NCBI GenBank assembly: GCA_963770895.1
Contig: CAVYRF010000001.1
Location: 1,696,001 to 1,760,000, forward strand
Origin: an uncultured Acidobacteriota bacterium
GTDB taxonomy: Bacteria > Acidobacteriota > Thermoanaerobaculia > Multivoradales > UBA5704
Reading direction: 5' to 3'
Length of the DNA: 64,000 bases
A model generated the notes under the pieces. The model was not told where the DNA came from. It ran no database searches and worked only from the letters and a program-made list of their open reading frames with translations. A program made the position numbers and the translations under genes. Of this stretch, positions 48,460 to 58,060 are shown one piece after another. Every line of letters starts with the position of its first letter. Position 1 is the first letter of the stretch.

Positions 48460-51400
48460 ATGGGAAGATCGCTGCACTTGGCCCACATATTCCCTCTGGT
48501 TCTGGGTTTGGTTTTGGCGCCGGCGCCGCCGCTGCTGCCAGGGCAGACGCTCACCGCGACCCTCGCTCCCGGCGCGACGTTCGCGGCCGTGCTCACCAAG
48601 GGCGCCGACGGTGCGCCGGCGGGCGGCGCCGCGCTCCTGGTCGCCGCCGACCAGCTGGGCGTCGACGTCGTGCTCGACGTGGTGGCTCCGGGCGGCGCGC
48701 ATCTCGGGCCGGTGGACAGCCCGACCGATCGCGAAGGCGCCGAATCGCTGCTCATCCCCGCCGCCGCCGCGCCCGGCGTCTATCGCGTCGAGGTGCGGGC
48801 GGCGGCCGGCGCCCTGCCGCCGGGCAGGGTCGAGCTGCGCGCCGAAGCGCTGCCGGCGGCCAGCGCCAGCGACCGCCGGCGCCTGGCGGCGGAGGGCGCG
48901 ATGAGCGAAGCCGGCCGCCTGTTCGCGGCCGGCGGCGCGGTGGCGCGGCGCGCCGCGGCGGCGCGGCTGGCGACGGCGCTCGACCTGTGGCGCGCGGCGG
49001 GGGAGCGCGGCCAGCAGGCGCGCACCCTCTACTGGCTGGCGCAGATCCAAGGCGCCCTGGGCGAGTCGCGCCAGGCGCTCGATCTCTACGGCTAGGCGCT
49101 GCCGCTGTGGCAGGCGGCCGGCGATGCCGGGCGCGAAGCCGACACCCTGACCGGCATGGGGCTGGCCAGCTGGCGGCTGGGCGACAACCCGTCGGCGCTG
49201 GCGGCGTTCCAGCGGGCGATGGCGCTCGAGCGGCAGCTGGGCGACCGCCACCGTGAGGCGGTGACGCGCAACAACCTCTGCCTGGTCGAGCACGCGCGCG
49301 GCGAGCTGCGCCAGGCGCTCACCTGTTACCAGGACGCCCTGGCGTCGCTCGCCGGCCAGGGCGAGGAGCGGCAGCAAGCCGTGCTGCTGCTCAATGCCGG
49401 CGCGGCGTCGGAAAGCCTGGGCGAGCCGCGCCTGGCGATCGCGCGCTTCCAGCAGGCGCTCGTCCTGCTGCGCGCCGCCGGCGACCGCAAGCAGCAGGCG
49501 CAGGCGCTCAACAACCTCGCGGTGGTGTGGAGCGAGCTGGGCGACAAGGACCGGGCGCTGACCACCTATGGGCAGGCGCTCGACCTCTTCCGCCAGGCCG
49601 GCGACCGCCTGGGCGAGGCGCGGGCGCTGCACAATCTCGGCGTCACCTACTTTGCGCTCGGCGAACCGCGGCGCGCGGAGGCGCACTACGAGCAGGCGCT
49701 GGCGCTGCGGCGCGAGCTGGGCGACCGCCGCGGCGAAGCCAGCACGCTGGAAAAGCTGGCCGCCGCCTACGGCGCGGAGGGCGACGCCGCCAAGGCGCTG
49801 GCCGCGGCCAGCCAGGCGCTGGCCCTGGCGCGCGCCGCCACCGATGGCGCCGACCGCGGCGCCCTGGCCGACGCGCTCGCCCTGCTGGGCAGGGAGCAGG
49901 CGGCCGGCGGCGACCTGGCCGCGGCGACGGCCAGCCTCGGCGACGCCGCCGCGGCGCGGCGGGCGACCGGCGATCGTGGCGGGACCGCCCAAGCCTTGGA
50001 GCAGCTGGGGGAGGTGCAGGCGCAGGCGGCGGCCGCCGCCGCGGGCCTGGCGCCGGCGGCCGCCGCGGTCGCAGAGGCGCTGGCCATCCGCCGCGAGATC
50101 GCCGATCCCGGCGCCCAGGTCGAGTCGCTCGACGCCCTGGCGCGGATCGAGCGGCGGCGCGGCCGCGCGGCGGCGGCGCGCGCCGACGCCGAGGAGGCGA
50201 TGCGCCTGGTGGAGTCGCTGCGCACGGCCATTGCCGGCCCGGCGCTGCGCGCCTCCTTCCTGGGCGCCCGCCACAGCGCCTACGAAACCGAGATCGACCT
50301 GCTGATGGATCTCGACGCCGCCGATCCCGGCCAGGGCCACGCCCGTCAGGCGTTCGAGGTCAGCGAGAGGGCGCGGGCGCGCGCCCTGCTCGACCTGCTC
50401 GGGGAGGCCCGCGCCGGCGCCCCCGCCGGCGGCCTGCCGCCCGACGCGGCGGAATTCGCGCGCCGCCGCCAGGCGCTCGACGAGCGCCTGCGGGCCAAGC
50501 AGCGCCGCCGCCTGGAGGCGAGCGCCGGGACCGGCGCCGCCGCCCCCGGCCAGGACCCGCCGCCAGCGGCCGAGCGGGCGGCAGCCGAGCGGCGGGCGGT
50601 GGCAGCGCAGGTCGCCGGGCGCGAGGTCGCAGCGGTGCTGCGCGAGCTCGACCAGCTGGACATCGAAATGCGTGCCGAGCGGCCGCGCTACCTGCAGCTG
50701 GCCGACCCGCGGCCGCTCACCGCGGCGCAGATCCAGGCGCTGCTCGATCCCGCGACGCTGCTGCTGGAGTTCGCGTTGGGGGAGGAGCACAGCTTCCTGT
50801 GGGTGGTGGGCAGCGACCGCCTCGACAGCTACCAGCTGCCCGGCCGCGCGGCGGTCGAAGAGCAGGCGCGCCGGGTGTACGGCCAGCTCGCCGCGCCCAG
50901 CCTGGACGCGCACGAGGCGGGCGCGGCGCGGCGCGACGCGGCGGCGCTCTCCCGGCTGCTGCTCGGCCCGGCCGCCGGCCGCCTGGGGGATCGCCGGCTG
51001 GTGGTGGTGGCCGACGGCGCGCTGGTCTACCTGCCTTTCGCGGCGCTGCCGCAGCCCGGCGACCCCGACCAGCCGCTGCTGGCGCGCCACCAGTTGGTGT
51101 CGCTGCCGGCGGCGTCGCTGCTGCCGCTGCTGCGGCAGGGCGCCGCCGCGCTGCCGCCGGCCGCTGCCGGCGCGGCGCCGCCGGCGATGACAGCGCCGGC
51201 GGCGGGGGTGGCGCGGACCCTGGTGGTGCTGGCCGACCCGGTGTTCTCCGCCGACGACCCGCGGGTGGCGGCCGGCGGTGGCGCCGTTGCGCGGGGCGCC
51301 GCGGGCGCCGCACCCGTCCTCGATCGCCTGCCGGCGACGCGGCGCGAAGCCGAGACGATCGCCGCCTTGTTGCCGGCGGACCAGGAGCGCCTGGCCCTGG

Positions 51401-51897
51401 ATTTCGCTGCCAGCCGCGACCTGGTGCTGGCCGGGGGCCTGGCGCCCTATCGCTACGTGCACTTTGCGACGCACGGGCGGATCGACGCCCAGGACCCGGC
51501 GCTCTCCGGCCTGGAGCTTGCCGGCGTCGCTCCCGACGGCACGCCGCGCGACGGCTTTCTGAGCGTCGGCGACATCTACGGCCTGCGCCTGGCCGCCGAC
51601 CTGGTGGTGCTGTCGGGCTGCGAGACCGCCCTGGGCAAGGCCATCCGCGGCGAGGGGCTGGTCGGCCTGGTGCAGGGATTCCTGGTCGCCGGCGCCGACC
51701 GGGTGGTGGCCAGCCTGTGGCGGGTGCCGGACCGCGCCACCGCCCAGCTGATGGGGAGCTTCTATCGCGCGCTGCTGGTCGACCGGCTGCCGCCCGCGGC
51801 GGCGTTGCGGCAGGCGCAGCTGGCGCTGGCCGGGGAGCGGCGCTGGCGAGCGCCGTACTATTGGGCGTCGTTCGTGCTGCTGGGCGACTGGCGGTGA
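48460..51897 (+). pseudogene. Secreted TPR-CHAT (caspase-like) protease interrupted by an in-frame TAG at 49093-49095
   Basis: Signal peptide, small beta domain, many TPRs, CHAT dyad VHFATHG and LVVLSGCET, APYYWASF; the two track ORFs share one frame across a single stop. Confidence 0.85.
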
Positions 51898-52493
51898 TCG
51901 ACGCCGACGTCCACGCGGTCGTCGACCAGGCGGCGATCGAGCTGGCGCGGCGCATCGGCAGCGGCGACGCCGCGGCGGAAGGCGAGCTGGTCGAGCGCTA
52001 TAGCAAGGGCGTGCTCTTCCTGCTGCGCCGCATGACGCGCGATCGGGCGCTGGCCGACGATCTGCATCAGGAAACCTTTCGCGTCGTGCTCGAACGCCTG
52101 CGCGGCGCCAGCCTGGAAGAGCCCGGCAAGCTCCCGGCCTTCGTCTTGCGCACGGCGCGCAATCTCTTCCTGGCCGGCTACCGCAAGCGCGTGCGGCGCG
52201 GCGAGCACCACGACCTGGCGCCGCCCGAAAGCGTGCCCGATCCGGCGCCCGGCCAGCTGGAGGAGGTGCTGCGCGCCGAGCGGCGGGCGCAGGTGCGGCA
52301 GGTGATCGAAGAGCTGCCCACCGAACGCGACCGCCTCATCCTGCTGCGCTACTACGCCGCCGACCAGGACAAGGAGCGGATCTGCGCCGATCTCAACCTG
52401 TCGGCGCAGCACTTTCATCGCGTACTGTTCCGCGCGCGGCAACGTCTGCGGGAGCTGCTGGTGCGGTCGCCGCGCGATCGGGGGGTGAGATGA
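51894..52493 (+). CDS. ECF sigma-70 factor
   Basis: GTGA overlap with the CHAT gene; GDAAAEGELVERY, ADDLHQETF, TARN, LILLRYY, RVLFRARQRLR. Confidence 0.92.
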   Translation: MIDADVHAVVDQAAIELARRIGSGDAAAEGELVERYSKGVLFLLRRMTRDRALADDLHQETFRVVLERLRGASLEEPGKLPAFVLRTARNLFLAGYRKRVRRGEHHDLAPPESVPDPAPGQLEEVLRAERRAQVRQVIEELPTERDRLILLRYYAADQDKERICADLNLSAQHFHRVLFRARQRLRELLVRSPRDRGVR

Positions 52494-52513
52494 ACCGCAC
52501 GCTGGCGGCAGCT
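52484..52513 (+). promoter_or_regulatory. Putative ECF sigma promoter, copy A
   Basis: GGTGAGATGAACCGCACGCTGGCGGCAGCT over the sigma stop codon, upstream of the anti-sigma. Confidence 0.7.
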
Positions 52514-52542
52514 CTAAAGCGGTGGGAGCGTTGGTGACAGTG

Positions 52543-53484
52543 ATGGAACACCGAAAGATCGAAGACGAAGACTGGATCGCGCGCTATGCCGCCGGTACCC
52601 TGCCGGACGAGCAGGCGGAGCTCTTCGCCCAGCACCTGCTGCTATGCGGCGAATGCCGCGAGCAGCTGGAGCTTGAGGAGACGCTGCGCGACGGGGTGCG
52701 CGCCTGGAGCGTCGAGCAGGCGGCGCGCCAGCAGGTGGTGGTGCGCGCAAGCCTCGCCGCCTGGCTGGCCCGGCACGGCCGGTCGCGCACGCTGGCGATC
52801 GCCTGGACGCTGCTGCTGGTGGTCGCCTTGACTCCCGGCGGATGGCTGCTGCGTCAGGCGGTGGAGCAGCGCGGCCAGCTGGCGCGCGAGCGTGCCGCCG
52901 CCACCGCCGCGGCCGCGGCCGCGGGAGCGGTCGCCCCCGCCGCCGCCACCGCCGCCGCCGCGGCGCGCCGCATCGAGCAGCTGCAGGCCCAGCTGGCGGC
53001 GCAGCAGCTGGCCGCCGACCGCGCCGGCGCCGCCGAGCGCCGTGAGCGCGAGGGCCGCCAGGCCCTGGCGCGCCAGCTGGACCTGGAGCGCCAGCCGCGC
53101 GTCGACACGCCGATCGCCGTCCTGAGCGCGCTGCGCTCGGCGGCGGCGGGTGGGGGAGCGGCGCCGCCGGTGCGCATCGCCCTTCCCGTTGCCGCCGCCG
53201 CGCCGGCCCCGGCCGGTGCCGCGCCGCCCACCGCCTGGATCGCGCTGGCGCTGGAGCTGGACGGCCCGCGTCTTGCCTCGTACGCGGTGACCCTGGCCAC
53301 GGCGCGGGGCAAGACCGTCTGGCGCTGCCAGGGGCTGCACCTGGACGCGGCGGACCAGCTCACCTTGAGCCTGCCCGCATCGCTCCTGGCGCCGGGCGAC
53401 TACGAGCTGCGGGTCCAAAGCCTGGCGGCGGGCGCGCCGCCGGTCCCCGTCGCCCGCTTTGCGTTCCGCGCCGTGGCCAGGTGA
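52543..53484 (+). CDS. Membrane-spanning zinc-binding anti-sigma factor (zf-HC2)
   Basis: HLLLCGEC (HxxxCxxC), one TM helix, coiled coil, C-terminal beta domain with PGDYELRV. Confidence 0.88.
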   Translation: MEHRKIEDEDWIARYAAGTLPDEQAELFAQHLLLCGECREQLELEETLRDGVRAWSVEQAARQQVVVRASLAAWLARHGRSRTLAIAWTLLLVVALTPGGWLLRQAVEQRGQLARERAAATAAAAAAGAVAPAAATAAAAARRIEQLQAQLAAQQLAADRAGAAERREREGRQALARQLDLERQPRVDTPIAVLSALRSAAAGGGAAPPVRIALPVAAAAPAPAGAAPPTAWIALALELDGPRLASYAVTLATARGKTVWRCQGLHLDAADQLTLSLPASLLAPGDYELRVQSLAAGAPPVPVARFAFRAVAR

Positions 53485-53570: not shown

Positions 53571-53912
53571 ATGGATCGCCAGTCTTCGCTTCCCGCTTCC
53601 TGGAGCATCACCGAGTCGGACAACCCCACGATCTACCCGGTCGGCGCCCAGGTGGCGATGACCCCCGCGGACGACGGGCTCTACCAGCTGGGCTGGGGCG
53701 GATACCTGCTCGCCAACCTGGTGCATTTCGGCGGTGAAACCTTTCATTCGCTGCACGGCCACCCGGCCTTCGACGGCGCGCAGACTCCCTATCAGGTCGA
53801 AGTCCGGTTCGCCGCCGACGCCGGCCACATCCACGTCACCGTGCGCGCCGGCAACAGCGGCAGCGATCCGGGAGACCTGTCCGGCACCTGGGGCGCCGAC
53901 GCCAAGAACTGA
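53571..53912 (+). CDS. Small hypothetical protein (113 aa), putative ECF target
   Basis: AAGGAG RBS, host-like codon usage, ends GDLSGTWGADAKN. Confidence 0.8.
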   Translation: MDRQSSLPASWSITESDNPTIYPVGAQVAMTPADDGLYQLGWGGYLLANLVHFGGETFHSLHGHPAFDGAQTPYQVEVRFAADAGHIHVTVRAGNSGSDPGDLSGTWGADAKN

Positions 53913-54442: not shown

Positions 54443-54703
54443 CAGAGCGCAAGCTCAGGCGCCGCGAGCCGCGCTGCGGCGGCGGCTCGTCCGGATGCCG
54501 AACCATCCTCCGCGGAGCGCAGTGCGCATTGCACACTGCGCAGGTGGCGCCCCGGGGCTCCGGCTTGCTCAGGTCGTGCTTGACAGCTGCACGGCTTCAA
54601 GAGATACACTTAAGCATCATTCGCGCAGCTTGAAAGCCATTGCACCCGCCGGTCGCGAGCCCATCTGGTGCCGATCGGTTGCCAGGCGGTGAGGAGTCAT
54701 CGA

Positions 54704-55948
54704 ATGTCTCCGATGCAGCTTTCCCATCCGGCTCGCAGGCGCTACGAACCGATCCGGGACCTGGCGGCGTTGCAGTTGCACCTGCAATGGGCGACGTCGC
54801 TCGAACTGTCGACCATCGCGCCGTATCTGTGCGCGCTCTACTCGGTGCAGGACCAGACCAGCGCCGCCGCGACGCTGGTGCGCGGCGTCGCCATCGAGGA
54901 GATGCTGCACATGATGCTGGCCAGCAACCTGATGAACTCGGTCGGCGCCAGCCCGAAGCTGTCGGGGGAGTTCGTCGCCAAGTACCCGACCTTCCTGCCG
55001 CACCACGCGGCCGGCGGCCCGTACGTGCAGCTGCAGGCGCTGTCGCCGGCGCTCGCGTCGACGACGTTCATGCCCATCGAGCAGCCCGAGGCGTCGCCGC
55101 AGGCGCCGCCACAGGGCGACTACTTTCAAACCATCGGCCAGTTCTACAAGGCGATCGAGCTGGGTTTCCGCCACCTGGCGGCGGAGCACGGCGAAAAATG
55201 GCTGTTCGGGCACGACACCGGGTGCCAGCACGGCGATACCTACTTCGGCGGCGGCGGCGGTCACCTGGTGGTGGTCGAAGACCTCCAGTCGGCACTGCTG
55301 GCGCTCCAGGAGATCACCGAGCAGGGCGAGGGCGCCGCCTGGCCCCACCCGCCGCTGCCCGGCGAAGACCCCTTCGGCAGCTACGAGCAGTACGGCATCC
55401 GCCTTGACGGCACCTACGGCCCCATCCTGGGAACGCCCTGGGAGATGTCGCACTACTACAAGTTCAAGCAGCTGGCCGACGGCACGGTGGCCGCTCCCGC
55501 GGTCTATCCGATGCAGGCAAACCCGGACAGCGATTCGCTCAGCGGTGCCGTTCGCAAGCTTTCGGAGCTGTGCGACGCCAGCTACGGCCTGCTGCTGCGC
55601 GCCCTCGAAAAGGCGCTCGGCACGCGGCGCGAGCAGGCCGACTTCTTTGGCATCGCCTTCCCGGTGATGCAGTTCGTGCTGCCGCGGCTCTCGGCTCTGC
55701 TGATGCAGACCGCCCTGCTGCCCGAGGCCGACCCCACGCTGGGTCCGAACGCCGGCCCCAGCTTCATGCCGCGCAACGTGCCGGCCGCGGAGGTCGCTCG
55801 CCAGGCCGAAGAGCTGCTCGCCGCGCCGCCGGCCGACCGCGGCGACAGCTACGCGACGTTGTGGGTTACGACCCTGGGCGCGGTGACCCCCGTCCTGCGC
55901 CACGCGGCAGCGCTGGCCCGCGGCCACGCCGCGCTGGACGCTCCCTAG
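54704..55948 (+). CDS. Ferritin-like protein (VioB/StaD C-terminal-type)
   Basis: LELSTIAPYLCALYS, IEEMLHM..ASNL, FMPIEQP, TIGQFY, ITEQGEG, SHYYKF. Confidence 0.88.
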   Translation: MSPMQLSHPARRRYEPIRDLAALQLHLQWATSLELSTIAPYLCALYSVQDQTSAAATLVRGVAIEEMLHMMLASNLMNSVGASPKLSGEFVAKYPTFLPHHAAGGPYVQLQALSPALASTTFMPIEQPEASPQAPPQGDYFQTIGQFYKAIELGFRHLAAEHGEKWLFGHDTGCQHGDTYFGGGGGHLVVVEDLQSALLALQEITEQGEGAAWPHPPLPGEDPFGSYEQYGIRLDGTYGPILGTPWEMSHYYKFKQLADGTVAAPAVYPMQANPDSDSLSGAVRKLSELCDASYGLLLRALEKALGTRREQADFFGIAFPVMQFVLPRLSALLMQTALLPEADPTLGPNAGPSFMPRNVPAAEVARQAEELLAAPPADRGDSYATLWVTTLGAVTPVLRHAAALARGHAALDAP

Positions 55949-55999
55949 GCCCGCGGACCCGACACCAGGCCCGCGGCGATCGCACTTCGAGGGGACAGC

Positions 56000-58060
56000 A
56001 TGGACCCGCAACCGCACTTCAAGATCCATCCGGCCATCGGCGTCGCCCGCCTGGGCGACAGCGAGGAGTACTACCTGGCGCCCGAAACCGCGGGCGGCCT
56101 GCCGCTGCTGCCGGATGGGCGGCCGTTTGAGGCCGGCGACTTCCGCGATTCCCATCACGGCCTGCGCCGCCAGGGGGCCCGCTTCACGATCTATCGTTAC
56201 GACGGTCCCGACGACGCCGGCGTCGAGGTGAAGGCGGGCGACCACGGCGTCGCCCGCATCGAATGGCAGGTGCATCTCGCCAACAAAAAGGCCATCTGGT
56301 ACCAGTTCGAAGTGCTGCTCGGCGAATTCGGCTATTCCCCCGACCATCCGCTGCGCAACGCCCAGGTGACCGAACCGGCGAAACGCCGGGCGATGATCAT
56401 CGATCCGGGCCCGCGCCGGCTGACCGGTCCCGGCCAGGCGGTGGAGTTTTCGCGCGCCGACAACCCGCACCACTACCCGATGACCTGGCCGCCCAAGGAC
56501 CTGCAGCCGTTCACCATCGATTCGCTGGGCGGCCTGCGCACCGACGCCCAGGGGCGCCTGGTGGTGCTCGGCGGCTACGGCCGTTCGGGATCGTCGATCC
56601 ATCCGCCGCAGATCCAGCAGTACGCCAACAATCCCGGCTGGTGGGACGACACCGCCGACGGGCCGGTGACCGCGGAGATCGTGTTCGAAGACGGCCGCCG
56701 CCAGCCGGTGGAGGTGCCGTCCTGGGTGTTCGTGGCGCCGCCGCGCTACGCGCCGCAGCTGCTCAACCTGGTGACGCTGTACGACACGGTGTTCGACACC
56801 TTTGTGCGCAACGCCGGCCTGCGGCCGGAGGTCTTCGCCGAGGGTCAATGGCAGCGCGACTACCACCCGGACTGGAACGGCGAGATCCTGCCGATCCTGG
56901 AACGCATCCGCCGCTACCACTGGGTGGTGGCAATCCCGCCGCAGGCGCACGACCTGGACCTGCCCAAGCTGGGCGACCGCGCCGCCGAATACAACGCCCT
57001 GCGCCAGTTCTATCTCAGCGTCATCCGGCCGCCGGCAAGGCCCAACTCGCTCACCGGCGCCGCCAACGGGCTGACCCAGATGCCCTACCTGGCGGGCGAC
57101 AACTGCCTGCAACCGGATGCGCTCAACTCCAACTACCTGACGGTCACCAACACGCAATATTTCTTTTTGCAGCAGTGGGCGCTCGGCAGGTTCCGCCACG
57201 GCACCGCGGCGGCGCCCGTCGCGCCGACCCCGCCGGGCATGGCGCTCGACCGCGCGGCGCTCGAAAACTGCGTTGGCGGCGCCTTCTCGCCCGGCATCGA
57301 AATGACCTGGATCAGCCGCGACCTGCGCATCTACGCGCAGCCGTTCCGCATCAAACACAAGCCGCACGTGGTGCCGCCGCTCAGCCTGGGCGAAGACTTC
57401 GCGCAGGGCCTGGAGCCGGGCGACGTCGGCAAATACATGGCCCAGCCCTGGCAAGCCGATTTCAACGAATGTTCGTCGCAGCCGATCGGCGATCGCGTGT
57501 TCTGGTGGTGGCCGGTGCAGCGGCCGCTGTTCGTGCACGTCGAAACGGAAGGCATGCTCAGGCAGGTCCCCTGGCTGGGCACCGACGCCGACCAGAACGC
57601 CGACGACTACCTGCAATTCGGCATGGACATCCAGATGGTGTCGGGTTGGAAAGACCTCGGTTTCGTGATCGATCAGGGCACGCCGGGTCACCCCCGCTTC
57701 GTCGAGGTCCAACGCAACCTGCCGCGGCCTCCCGCGCCTGCCGCCTCCCACGCCGCCACGCAGGCCGGCCACGGCGGCCAGGCCAGCCGCGGCGGCGGGC
57801 ACCAGACCCACCACGTGGCGGAGGCCGGCGCTGCCGGCGCTCCCGGCGGCGGCGGCGTCCACGGCGCCGGCGTCCATGGTGCTGCAGAGCATGGCGAAGC
57901 GAGCCCCGGCGGCGGCTCTCACGGCGGCGTCCCTGACGGTGGCGGCGTGCGCGGTGGCGGCGTCGCCGGCGGTGGCGGTGTGCACGGCGGCGGCAGCGGC
58001 GTGCACGGCAGCGGCAGGGGTGGCGGGGGAGCCCGTGGCGGCGGCGACGGCCAGGTTTGA
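56000..58060 (+). CDS. LodA/GoxA-family CTQ-dependent oxidase with Gly/His-rich tail
   Basis: KIHPAIGVARLGDS, WQVHLANKKA, WWDDTADGPV, CVGGAFSPGIE, PWQADFNEC, WWPVQRP. Confidence 0.93.
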   Translation: MDPQPHFKIHPAIGVARLGDSEEYYLAPETAGGLPLLPDGRPFEAGDFRDSHHGLRRQGARFTIYRYDGPDDAGVEVKAGDHGVARIEWQVHLANKKAIWYQFEVLLGEFGYSPDHPLRNAQVTEPAKRRAMIIDPGPRRLTGPGQAVEFSRADNPHHYPMTWPPKDLQPFTIDSLGGLRTDAQGRLVVLGGYGRSGSSIHPPQIQQYANNPGWWDDTADGPVTAEIVFEDGRRQPVEVPSWVFVAPPRYAPQLLNLVTLYDTVFDTFVRNAGLRPEVFAEGQWQRDYHPDWNGEILPILERIRRYHWVVAIPPQAHDLDLPKLGDRAAEYNALRQFYLSVIRPPARPNSLTGAANGLTQMPYLAGDNCLQPDALNSNYLTVTNTQYFFLQQWALGRFRHGTAAAPVAPTPPGMALDRAALENCVGGAFSPGIEMTWISRDLRIYAQPFRIKHKPHVVPPLSLGEDFAQGLEPGDVGKYMAQPWQADFNECSSQPIGDRVFWWWPVQRPLFVHVETEGMLRQVPWLGTDADQNADDYLQFGMDIQMVSGWKDLGFVIDQGTPGHPRFVEVQRNLPRPPAPAASHAATQAGHGGQASRGGGHQTHHVAEAGAAGAPGGGGVHGAGVHGAAEHGEASPGGGSHGGVPDGGGVRGGGVAGGGGVHGGGSGVHGSGRGGGGARGGGDGQV

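Follow-up and report, generated by a model that had tools for sequence, protein, structure and literature searches.

Bacteria of the phylum Acidobacteriota carry a recurrent gene module that encodes a tetratricopeptide repeat (TPR)-CHAT protease predicted to be exported, a sigma factor of the extracytoplasmic function (ECF) type, a transmembrane anti-sigma factor of the zinc-binding ZAS type with a helical stalk and an immunoglobulin (Ig)-like end, and in most cases a lipocalin-like protein. We propose, at slightly below even odds (a probability of roughly 0.45), that the periplasmic TPR-CHAT protein makes the first cut in the anti-sigma factor, after which an RseP-type protease frees the sigma factor. 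The starting point was a stretch of 64,000 nt (the window) from the 8.2 Mb genome of an uncultured Acidobacteriota bacterium (G000, the source genome), in which the TPR-CHAT, ECF sigma and single-pass ZAS anti-sigma genes lie on the forward strand within 48460-53484; coordinates given without a locus label are positions in this window.

A preliminary description of this DNA had pointed out a signal-peptide-bearing TPR-CHAT gene with intact catalytic codons, an ECF sigma gene coupled to it through a GTGA overlap and a ZAS anti-sigma gene, and this three-gene observation was confirmed in every particular. Its mechanistic interpretation, an extracytoplasmic analogue of the CRISPR-associated craspase in which CHAT performs the first cut on the anti-sigma factor, is partly supported. 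It missed the closest known system, DdvA/DdvS, as well as the usual fourth gene of the module.

Conserved linkage of the three genes

The linkage of the triad is not due to chance. The source genome contains four triads, including that of the window, all of which are ordered CHAT, sigma, anti-sigma and draw on a single family each of sigma and anti-sigma factors. Altogether 34 CHAT matches and 40 Sigma70_r2 matches occur in this genome, and 8 of the 23 strongest CHAT genes are located no more than 2.2 kb from a Sigma70_r2 match, compared to a chance expectation that we estimate at about 4%. These eight include the CHAT genes of the four triads, and at least two further TPR-CHAT paralogues (L074 and L076) lie beside ECF sigma genes that are paired with other families of zf-HC2 ZAS anti-sigma factors.

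The same organization is found well beyond the source genome. Nine related loci from Thermoanaerobaculia, Holophagales and other Acidobacteriota metagenome-assembled genomes were retrieved by the anti-sigma factor alone, and all nine hold a TPR-CHAT gene of about 1100 codons, a sigma gene and the anti-sigma gene in this order. In an even sample of the phylum, the anti-sigma family was detected at E 1e-10 or better in 43 of 401 genomes, and the 24 loci considered here are those outside the source genome at which the match covers both ends of the profile. A TPR-CHAT gene is present within the fetched stretches at 18 of them, upstream on the same strand at 8, downstream on the same strand at 7 and convergent at 3, although among these 18 the gene of L053 is weak and cut by the end of the stretch, and in L055 the TPR and CHAT parts occupy two overlapping open reading frames (ORFs). 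At two of the 24 loci the contig breaks off, and the loci have no further flanking gene in common. That the linkage is kept through three gene orders points to a functional connection and not just to inheritance as an operon, and the expectation that such triads would recur across genomes was borne out, since they are conserved beyond chance in the source genome, the related loci and the phylum sample.

The TPR-CHAT protease

The TPR-CHAT gene occupies a single frame (48460-51897) which, when read through one in-frame TAG, yields a protein of 1145 residues composed of a signal-peptide-like N-terminus, a beta-rich domain, a long TPR array and a C-terminal CHAT domain. The N-terminus, MGRSLHLAHIFPLVLGLVLAPAPP, has a charged start followed by a hydrophobic core, and the beta-rich domain (about residues 30-135) and then a first TPR also fall within the N-terminal 211 codons, the pre-TAG part, where TPR_12 matches weakly (E 0.0056). 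The long TPR array is recognized by Pfam TPR_12 at E 4.1e-31, and the CHAT domain (PF12770, clan CD), which spans post-TAG residues 613-931, at E 7.7e-63 (213 bits, cut-off 24). The catalytic His is part of FATHG and the catalytic Cys of LSGCET (family motif LSGCxT); His793 and Cys842, as numbered in the post-TAG frame, are kept without exception in all 25 aligned TPR-CHAT proteins and in all 20 CHAT-domain sequences compared.

A simple script, rather than a signal-peptide predictor, detected a hydrophobic segment at the N-terminus of 21 of the 25 TPR-CHAT homologues, and two of the four misses (L001A and L001B) show a signal-peptide-like N-terminus by eye. From these features the TPR-CHAT protein is predicted to be exported. 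Many long TPR-CHAT paralogues among the CHAT matches of the source genome have signal-peptide or lipoprotein-like N-termini. Homology between the N-terminal beta domain of the CHAT protein and the Ig-like domain of the anti-sigma factor was considered as well and found to be unsupported (hhalign probability 19%, 16 columns).

The sigma factor and its anti-sigma factor

The GTG start codon of the sigma gene overlaps the stop codon of the CHAT gene. The sigma protein matches Sigma70_r2 (E 2e-9), weakly Sigma r4_2 (E 0.0031), and TIGR02937 sigma70-ECF with 76 bits against a cut-off of 42.9; it contains regions sigma-2 and sigma-4 only and matches the ECF superfamily model, as do members of the ECF (group IV) class. 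A phmmer search of translated ORFs identified three paralogues in the source genome (E 2.8e-55 to 4.7e-42). The sigma ORF of one paralogous triad (L002:5783-6721(-)) appears to be extended at its C-terminus by about 100 residues that include a hydrophobic stretch, which could reflect a mis-called stop or frame or else a real membrane-tethered sigma factor.

The anti-sigma gene directly follows the sigma gene; its product matches zf-HC2 (E 3.5e-5), and homologues favour ATG 52543 over 52522 as its start. When compared to sequences of the PDB, the protein matches RslA (3hug_B, E 4.3e-6) and the N-domain of DdvA (8rlz_A, E 1.3e-3). In an alignment of 101 sequences His10, His38, Cys42, Cys45 and Arg205 are invariant. 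The zinc site consists of H-x3-C-x2-C and an upstream His, while Arg205, the only invariant residue outside the zinc ligands, is located at the start of the Ig-like domain.

An AlphaFold2 model built from these 101 sequences reached a mean predicted local distance difference test (pLDDT) value of 88.9 and comprises a helical N-terminal ZAS region, a helix (87-133), a second long helix (140-190) and a beta-sandwich (198-319). By eye, the hydrophobic membrane stretch covers about residues 88-110 inside the first of these helices, and the membrane helix is followed by an Ala-rich, variable linker (block 131-140) with a pLDDT of 57, the lowest in the mature part. These features agree with the single transmembrane segment and the extracytoplasmic beta domain noted earlier, and the model predicts a topology in which the N-terminus is inside and a folded domain lies outside the membrane. 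For the beta-sandwich, a Foldseek search with the model returned generic Ig- and cupredoxin-like folds only (best E 2.2e-5), which gives no functional clue. Taken together, the export signal on the CHAT protein and the outer domain of the anti-sigma factor mean that the two could come together outside the cytoplasmic membrane. At a threshold of E 1e-30 the large anti-sigma family has 577 representative clusters, and at 1e-10 it has 6291, the latter figure possibly including hits to nothing but the zinc-finger end.

A lipocalin-like fourth protein

Most modules contain an additional gene of 129-154 codons between CHAT and sigma, which is present in all nine related loci, in two of the four triads of the source genome and in L043. 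Its product matches no Pfam or NCBIfam family, is listed in public sources only as 'hypothetical protein' and shows no signal peptide by eye. The structural model is a beta-barrel (pLDDT 86.8; predicted template modelling score, pTM, 0.81), and the Foldseek matches shown are almost all lipocalins, if weak ones (best E 5.4e-3, TM-score about 0.45-0.49), hence the designation lipocalin-like, which rests on the model. Two subtypes exist that differ in their C-terminal motif, either a strongly conserved GDPDQVGVWGA or GNTGTFxAQ. A genome-wide profile search did not find the fourth gene in the window triad or in its sister triad L001B.

Directly after the anti-sigma gene of the window lies an orphan ORF (53571-53912) that is preceded by a good AAGGAG-like ribosome-binding site. 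It matches no family, and no homologue of it was found, with nothing at E below 0.005 in the 30 other genomes searched. It was considered as the missing fourth gene and rejected as a demonstrated member of the module, as it is not matched by the fourth-gene profile and an hhalign comparison aligned 11 C-terminal residues only, with a probability of 2%. The end of the orphan ORF, DLSGTWGAD, resembles the C-terminal motif of the lipocalin-like protein. Its membership in the module is uncertain.

Co-divergence of the module components

For 18 triads the sigma, anti-sigma and CHAT trees contain the same two clades. In this order, the Shimodaira-Hasegawa-like approximate likelihood ratio test (SH-aLRT) supports are 69/93/100 in clade 1 and 99/100/100 in clade 2, and the clades correspond to the two fourth-gene subtypes. 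All parts are correlated in their pairwise divergences (r 0.69-0.94, Mantel p 0.001). The parts of the cassette thus evolve together, but show no partner-specific signal: when sigma is controlled for, the divergence of the anti-sigma outer domain and that of three regions of the CHAT protein give partial r values of 0.08, -0.13 and -0.36. Of the co-evolution that the preliminary description had named as a check, correlated divergence was therefore found, and a specific signal between the outer domain and CHAT was not.

Proposed mechanism and alternatives

In the mechanism that we favour, the zinc-binding N-domain of the anti-sigma factor would keep the sigma factor at the membrane, and the periplasmic TPR-CHAT protein would act as both sensor and first protease, so that a signal received through the TPR or beta domains leads to a cut in the periplasmic part of the anti-sigma factor. 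An RseP-type protease would then cleave within the membrane and, with the help of cytoplasmic proteases, the sigma factor would be freed. The source genome encodes an RseP-like Peptidase_M50 protein (C2:1501419-1502624, E 2.5e-64). Candidate cut regions, which are speculative, are the Ala-rich linker after the membrane helix and Arg205.

Several points weigh against this proposal. The lack of residual co-variation after sigma control means that the correlated divergence is explained by co-inheritance. The anti-sigma gene stands without a nearby CHAT gene at 4 of the 22 assessable phylum loci, and the CHAT domain is not detectably close to that of DdvA by sequence, as no DdvA periplasmic chain was matched at E up to 1. 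The fourth-gene protein, which has no signal peptide, is left unexplained by the model. In the window itself, the CHAT gene is interrupted and the genes are discordant in their phylogenetic placement, CHAT belonging to clade 1, sigma to clade 2 and the anti-sigma factor pairing with that of L001B on the clade-2 side (supports 80-93), which indicates some shuffling or weak resolution. At the related loci, motifs of the housekeeping type, seen by eye, precede both CHAT and sigma and give no hint as to which of the two regulates the other. Structure prediction of a complex between CHAT post-TAG residues 148-933 and anti-sigma residues 112-320, the N-terminal third of the CHAT protein being left out, gave scores of 0.08, 0.40 and 0.01 against a mark of 0.32 and speaks neither for nor against the proposal.

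The promoter motifs also bear on the opposite order of events, in which TPR-CHAT is an output of the system, that is, an envelope protease that, along with its lipocalin-like partner, would be switched on by the ECF sigma factor in response to some condition of the envelope. Release of the anti-sigma factor would then be due to a different protease or to a redox attack at the zinc site. ECF sigma factors often adjoin their own target genes. The order sigma, anti-sigma, CHAT at 7 of the 24 phylum loci would fit one autoregulated operon, the ZAS zinc site could itself sense oxidants, and the missing partner-specific co-variation also counts in favour of this reading. However, the conserved motif upstream of CHAT in the nine related loci (L003-L011) looks like a housekeeping-type extended -10 element rather than a typical ECF promoter, and no ECF-type promoter was seen by eye upstream of the genes of these loci. 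TGnTAnnAT motifs of this kind (GTGTATCAT, GTGCTACCAT, TGCTAGAAT and TGTATCAT, identified by eye) are present before CHAT and before sigma, which suggests two housekeeping-type promoters per module. Moreover, CHAT stays adjacent even when it is convergent (L047, L048 and L063), where it cannot be co-transcribed with the sigma pair, and the anti-sigma factor has kept a conserved folded periplasmic domain, which implies an input from outside. We consider it unlikely that TPR-CHAT is the output.

CHAT might also act upstream of the sigma factor in another way, either by processing a different exported protein or peptide, so that the product or the CHAT-substrate complex would bind the Ig-like domain, or as a non-catalytic co-sensor that is docked there. 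TPR arrays and Ig-like domains are both binding modules, and the invariant Arg205 could be a docking residue. A different substrate fits poorly with the loci, in which no conserved exported small gene was found, the one conserved small protein having no signal peptide, and the invariance of the His/Cys dyad argues against a purely non-catalytic CHAT. Both variants together appear quite improbable.

Returning to CHAT as the protease that cuts the anti-sigma factor first, a broader version can be formulated, in which a widespread and self-contained four-gene cassette of the Acidobacteriota would use a free periplasmic TPR-CHAT protein as the dedicated, trans-acting site-1 protease of an Ig-domain ZAS anti-sigma factor, with the lipocalin-like protein adding an internal input. 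In this full form the proposal is possible, if rather doubtful.

The interrupted copy in the window

The window copy is atypical in that it is without the lipocalin-like gene, its CHAT gene runs directly into sigma and a stop codon lies within CHAT. The TAG at 49093-49095 is the sole in-frame stop of the TPR-CHAT frame and follows 211 codons; in seven homologues the corresponding column contains Q four times, R twice and A once, and the sequence is conserved on both sides. The TAG stands in the assembly, and no public contig that holds part of the stretch spans 49093. It looks like a single CAG-to-TAG change without further decay. A real stop would split the export signal and the first 211 residues from the protease, so that the copy is probably defective and its protease arm dead; in addition, the translationally coupled sigma gene may suffer polarity.

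The window copy could thus be a decaying remnant whatever the function of the family, in which CHAT has been cut by a nonsense mutation, the fourth gene has been lost and polarity possibly silences the unit. Homologues mostly carry Gln at the position of the TAG, and the lipocalin-like gene was not found at the window with a profile that detects two others in the source genome. A DNA search of nine same-genus genomes revealed no close counterpart of the window gene, the best matches being about 70% identical over part of the query, which is at the level of paralogues, and the source genome contains three uninterrupted paralogous modules elsewhere, for example at C1:861638-867100. Nevertheless, the stop is a lone lesion without accompanying frameshifts, and with both flanks well conserved it could have arisen very recently, be tolerated or reflect an error of assembly. 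Neither the sigma gene nor the anti-sigma gene is damaged, and L001B, which is likewise without the fourth gene, has no interruption. Decay of this copy is a serious possibility, although we would give it somewhat less than an even chance.

Genomic context

The features of the window copy and the positions of the fourth gene at the other loci are collected in Table 1.

Table 1. Features of the window module and locations of the fourth gene
Feature	Position	Strand	Basis
TPR-CHAT, N-terminal 211 codons	48460..49092	+	translation; alignment with the N-termini of 7 homologues
In-frame TAG inside the TPR-CHAT gene	49093..49095	+	reading frame; homologue alignment
Remaining TPR-CHAT (TPR array, linker, CHAT domain)	49096..51897	+	Pfam; 25-homologue alignment
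Catalytic His codon (His793 of the post-TAG frame)	51472..51474	+	alignments
Catalytic Cys codon (Cys842 of the post-TAG frame)	51619..51621	+	alignments
ECF sigma factor, 199 residues	51894..52493	+	Pfam, TIGR02937, paralogues
ZAS anti-sigma factor, 320 residues	52522..53484, start probably ATG 52543	+	zf-HC2, AlphaFold2, homologues
Orphan ORF, 113 codons	53571..53912	+	sequence; AAGGAG-like ribosome site
Fourth gene (lipocalin-like)	L003-L011 (e.g. L005:5907-6338)		
Fourth gene (lipocalin-like)	L001:6165-6560, L002:6788-7261, L043:4136-4597	-	

In L007-L011 the region from the CHAT stop to the small gene (e.g. L011:5708-5781) contains a conserved CACTTCAG box that is followed by a short inverted repeat rich in GC, for example GGCGGCAATGCCGCC. 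The arms of the repeat vary between the loci while their complementarity is kept, and the element may be an attenuator or a processing hairpin.

Ten flanking ORFs of the window triad were scanned and include sulfatase, OmpA, aldo-keto reductase, ferritin-like, LodA-like, di-haem peroxidase and cupin domains, with no Cas-type domain among them. Within the same neighbourhood no CRISPR or CBASS (cyclic oligonucleotide-based anti-phage signalling system) genes were found, and PADLOC returned generic TPR matches only (8 proteins). Just downstream of the window triad, at 54668-58060, lie a ferritin-like gene (PF12902) and a LodA-like gene of the L-lysine epsilon-oxidase family, and a LodA-like paralogue with 52% identity is found beside the sister triad L001B (G000 C1:875273-878785); this recurrence could be a hint of a regulon or a coincidence. 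At L047, a 375-residue ORF adjoining the anti-sigma gene (L047:1367-2491(-)) matches the aerolysin-type pore-former family ETX_MTX2 of Pfam (E 9.6e-10).

Relation to known systems

Among known systems, DdvA/DdvS of Myxococcus xanthus comes closest. DdvA is a ZAS transmembrane anti-sigma factor whose 900-residue periplasmic domain is itself a TPR-CHAT protein, and its CHAT domain has been proposed to be the site-1 protease, which would cut the partner protomer's linker ahead of RseP (PMC11506125). In both systems an ECF sigma factor is held by a single-pass ZAS anti-sigma factor, a TPR-CHAT protein with a His-Cys dyad is located outside the cytoplasmic membrane (as predicted for the window module), and a site-1 cut by CHAT followed by RseP is the proposed sequence of events.

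The two systems differ in how these parts are distributed. The TPR-CHAT of DdvA is the periplasmic domain of the anti-sigma factor itself and would cut in trans within a dimer (PMC11506125), whereas in the window module it is a separate protein that is predicted to be exported. The window anti-sigma factor, at 320 residues, has its own Ig-like outer domain and no fused CHAT, and the H-x3-C-x2-C motif is found in none of the 23 CHAT ORFs of the source genome. Further differences from DdvA are that the window neighbourhood, as far as scanned, is not a defence island, and that most Acidobacteriota modules contain the extra lipocalin-like gene. By analogy, the Acidobacteriota module may be viewed as a DdvA/DdvS system with the protease and the anti-sigma factor on two polypeptides, which makes it DdvA-like on paper without being a member.

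A published search that covered the fused form only, a ZAS domain with a periplasmic TPR-CHAT, yielded such proteins from Myxococcota and one Comamonas (PMC11506125). Literature searches on CHAT with ECF, anti-sigma factors or Acidobacteria returned no description of a split, exported CHAT paired with an ECF system, and the terms 'CHAT' and 'TPR' are absent from the main text of the ECF reclassification by Casas-Pastor et al. (PMC7826278). The idea of a periplasmic CHAT acting on an anti-sigma factor is thus already published for the fused DdvA/DdvS, and the split form appears to be new.

The comparison with craspase, from which the preliminary description had started, holds in part: no Cas-type domain was found in the ten flanking ORFs scanned, and DdvA/DdvS is the closer precedent. 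In the type III-E system, the TPR-CHAT protease Csx29 partners with Cas7-11 and cleaves Csx30, an inhibitor of the ECF-like CASP-sigma, and this cleavage has been proposed to relieve the inhibition of the sigma factor (PMC10028731). Common to both systems is a TPR-CHAT protein linked to an ECF-like sigma factor and to that factor's inhibitor. However, craspase works in the cytoplasm under RNA guidance, bound to Cas7-11, with Csx30 as a soluble protein, whereas the window module has a protease with a predicted export signal and, as the inhibitor, a ZAS protein of the membrane.

A third comparison is offered by the DegS/RseP-RseA-RpoE pathway, which shares with the window module a single-pass anti-sigma factor, a separately encoded periplasmic site-1 protease (a candidate in the window) and an RseP homologue (PMC10028731, PMC11506125). 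The proteases differ, DegS being a PDZ serine protease (PMC10028731, PMC11506125) and the window candidate a clan-CD caspase-like CHAT with TPR sensors that is encoded beside the sigma/anti-sigma pair.

Concluding remarks

The window copy itself matters less, as it is atypical and probably broken; the significance lies with the family. Bacterial CHAT proteases are abundant and few of them have a known substrate. The natural split places the protease and its candidate substrate on separate polypeptides, and the cleavage hypothesis is therefore directly testable both in vitro and genetically. If the hypothesis is true, this would be the first stand-alone CHAT protease to gate an ECF sigma factor across a membrane, and would provide a natural two-protein system in which to test the cleavage step, whose validation was not possible with DdvA. 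The genomes of these soil Acidobacteria contain dozens of CHAT genes, and the tight linkage of a large anti-sigma family to TPR-CHAT genes in three gene orders suggests a common mode of envelope signalling in these organisms, of which no description was found.

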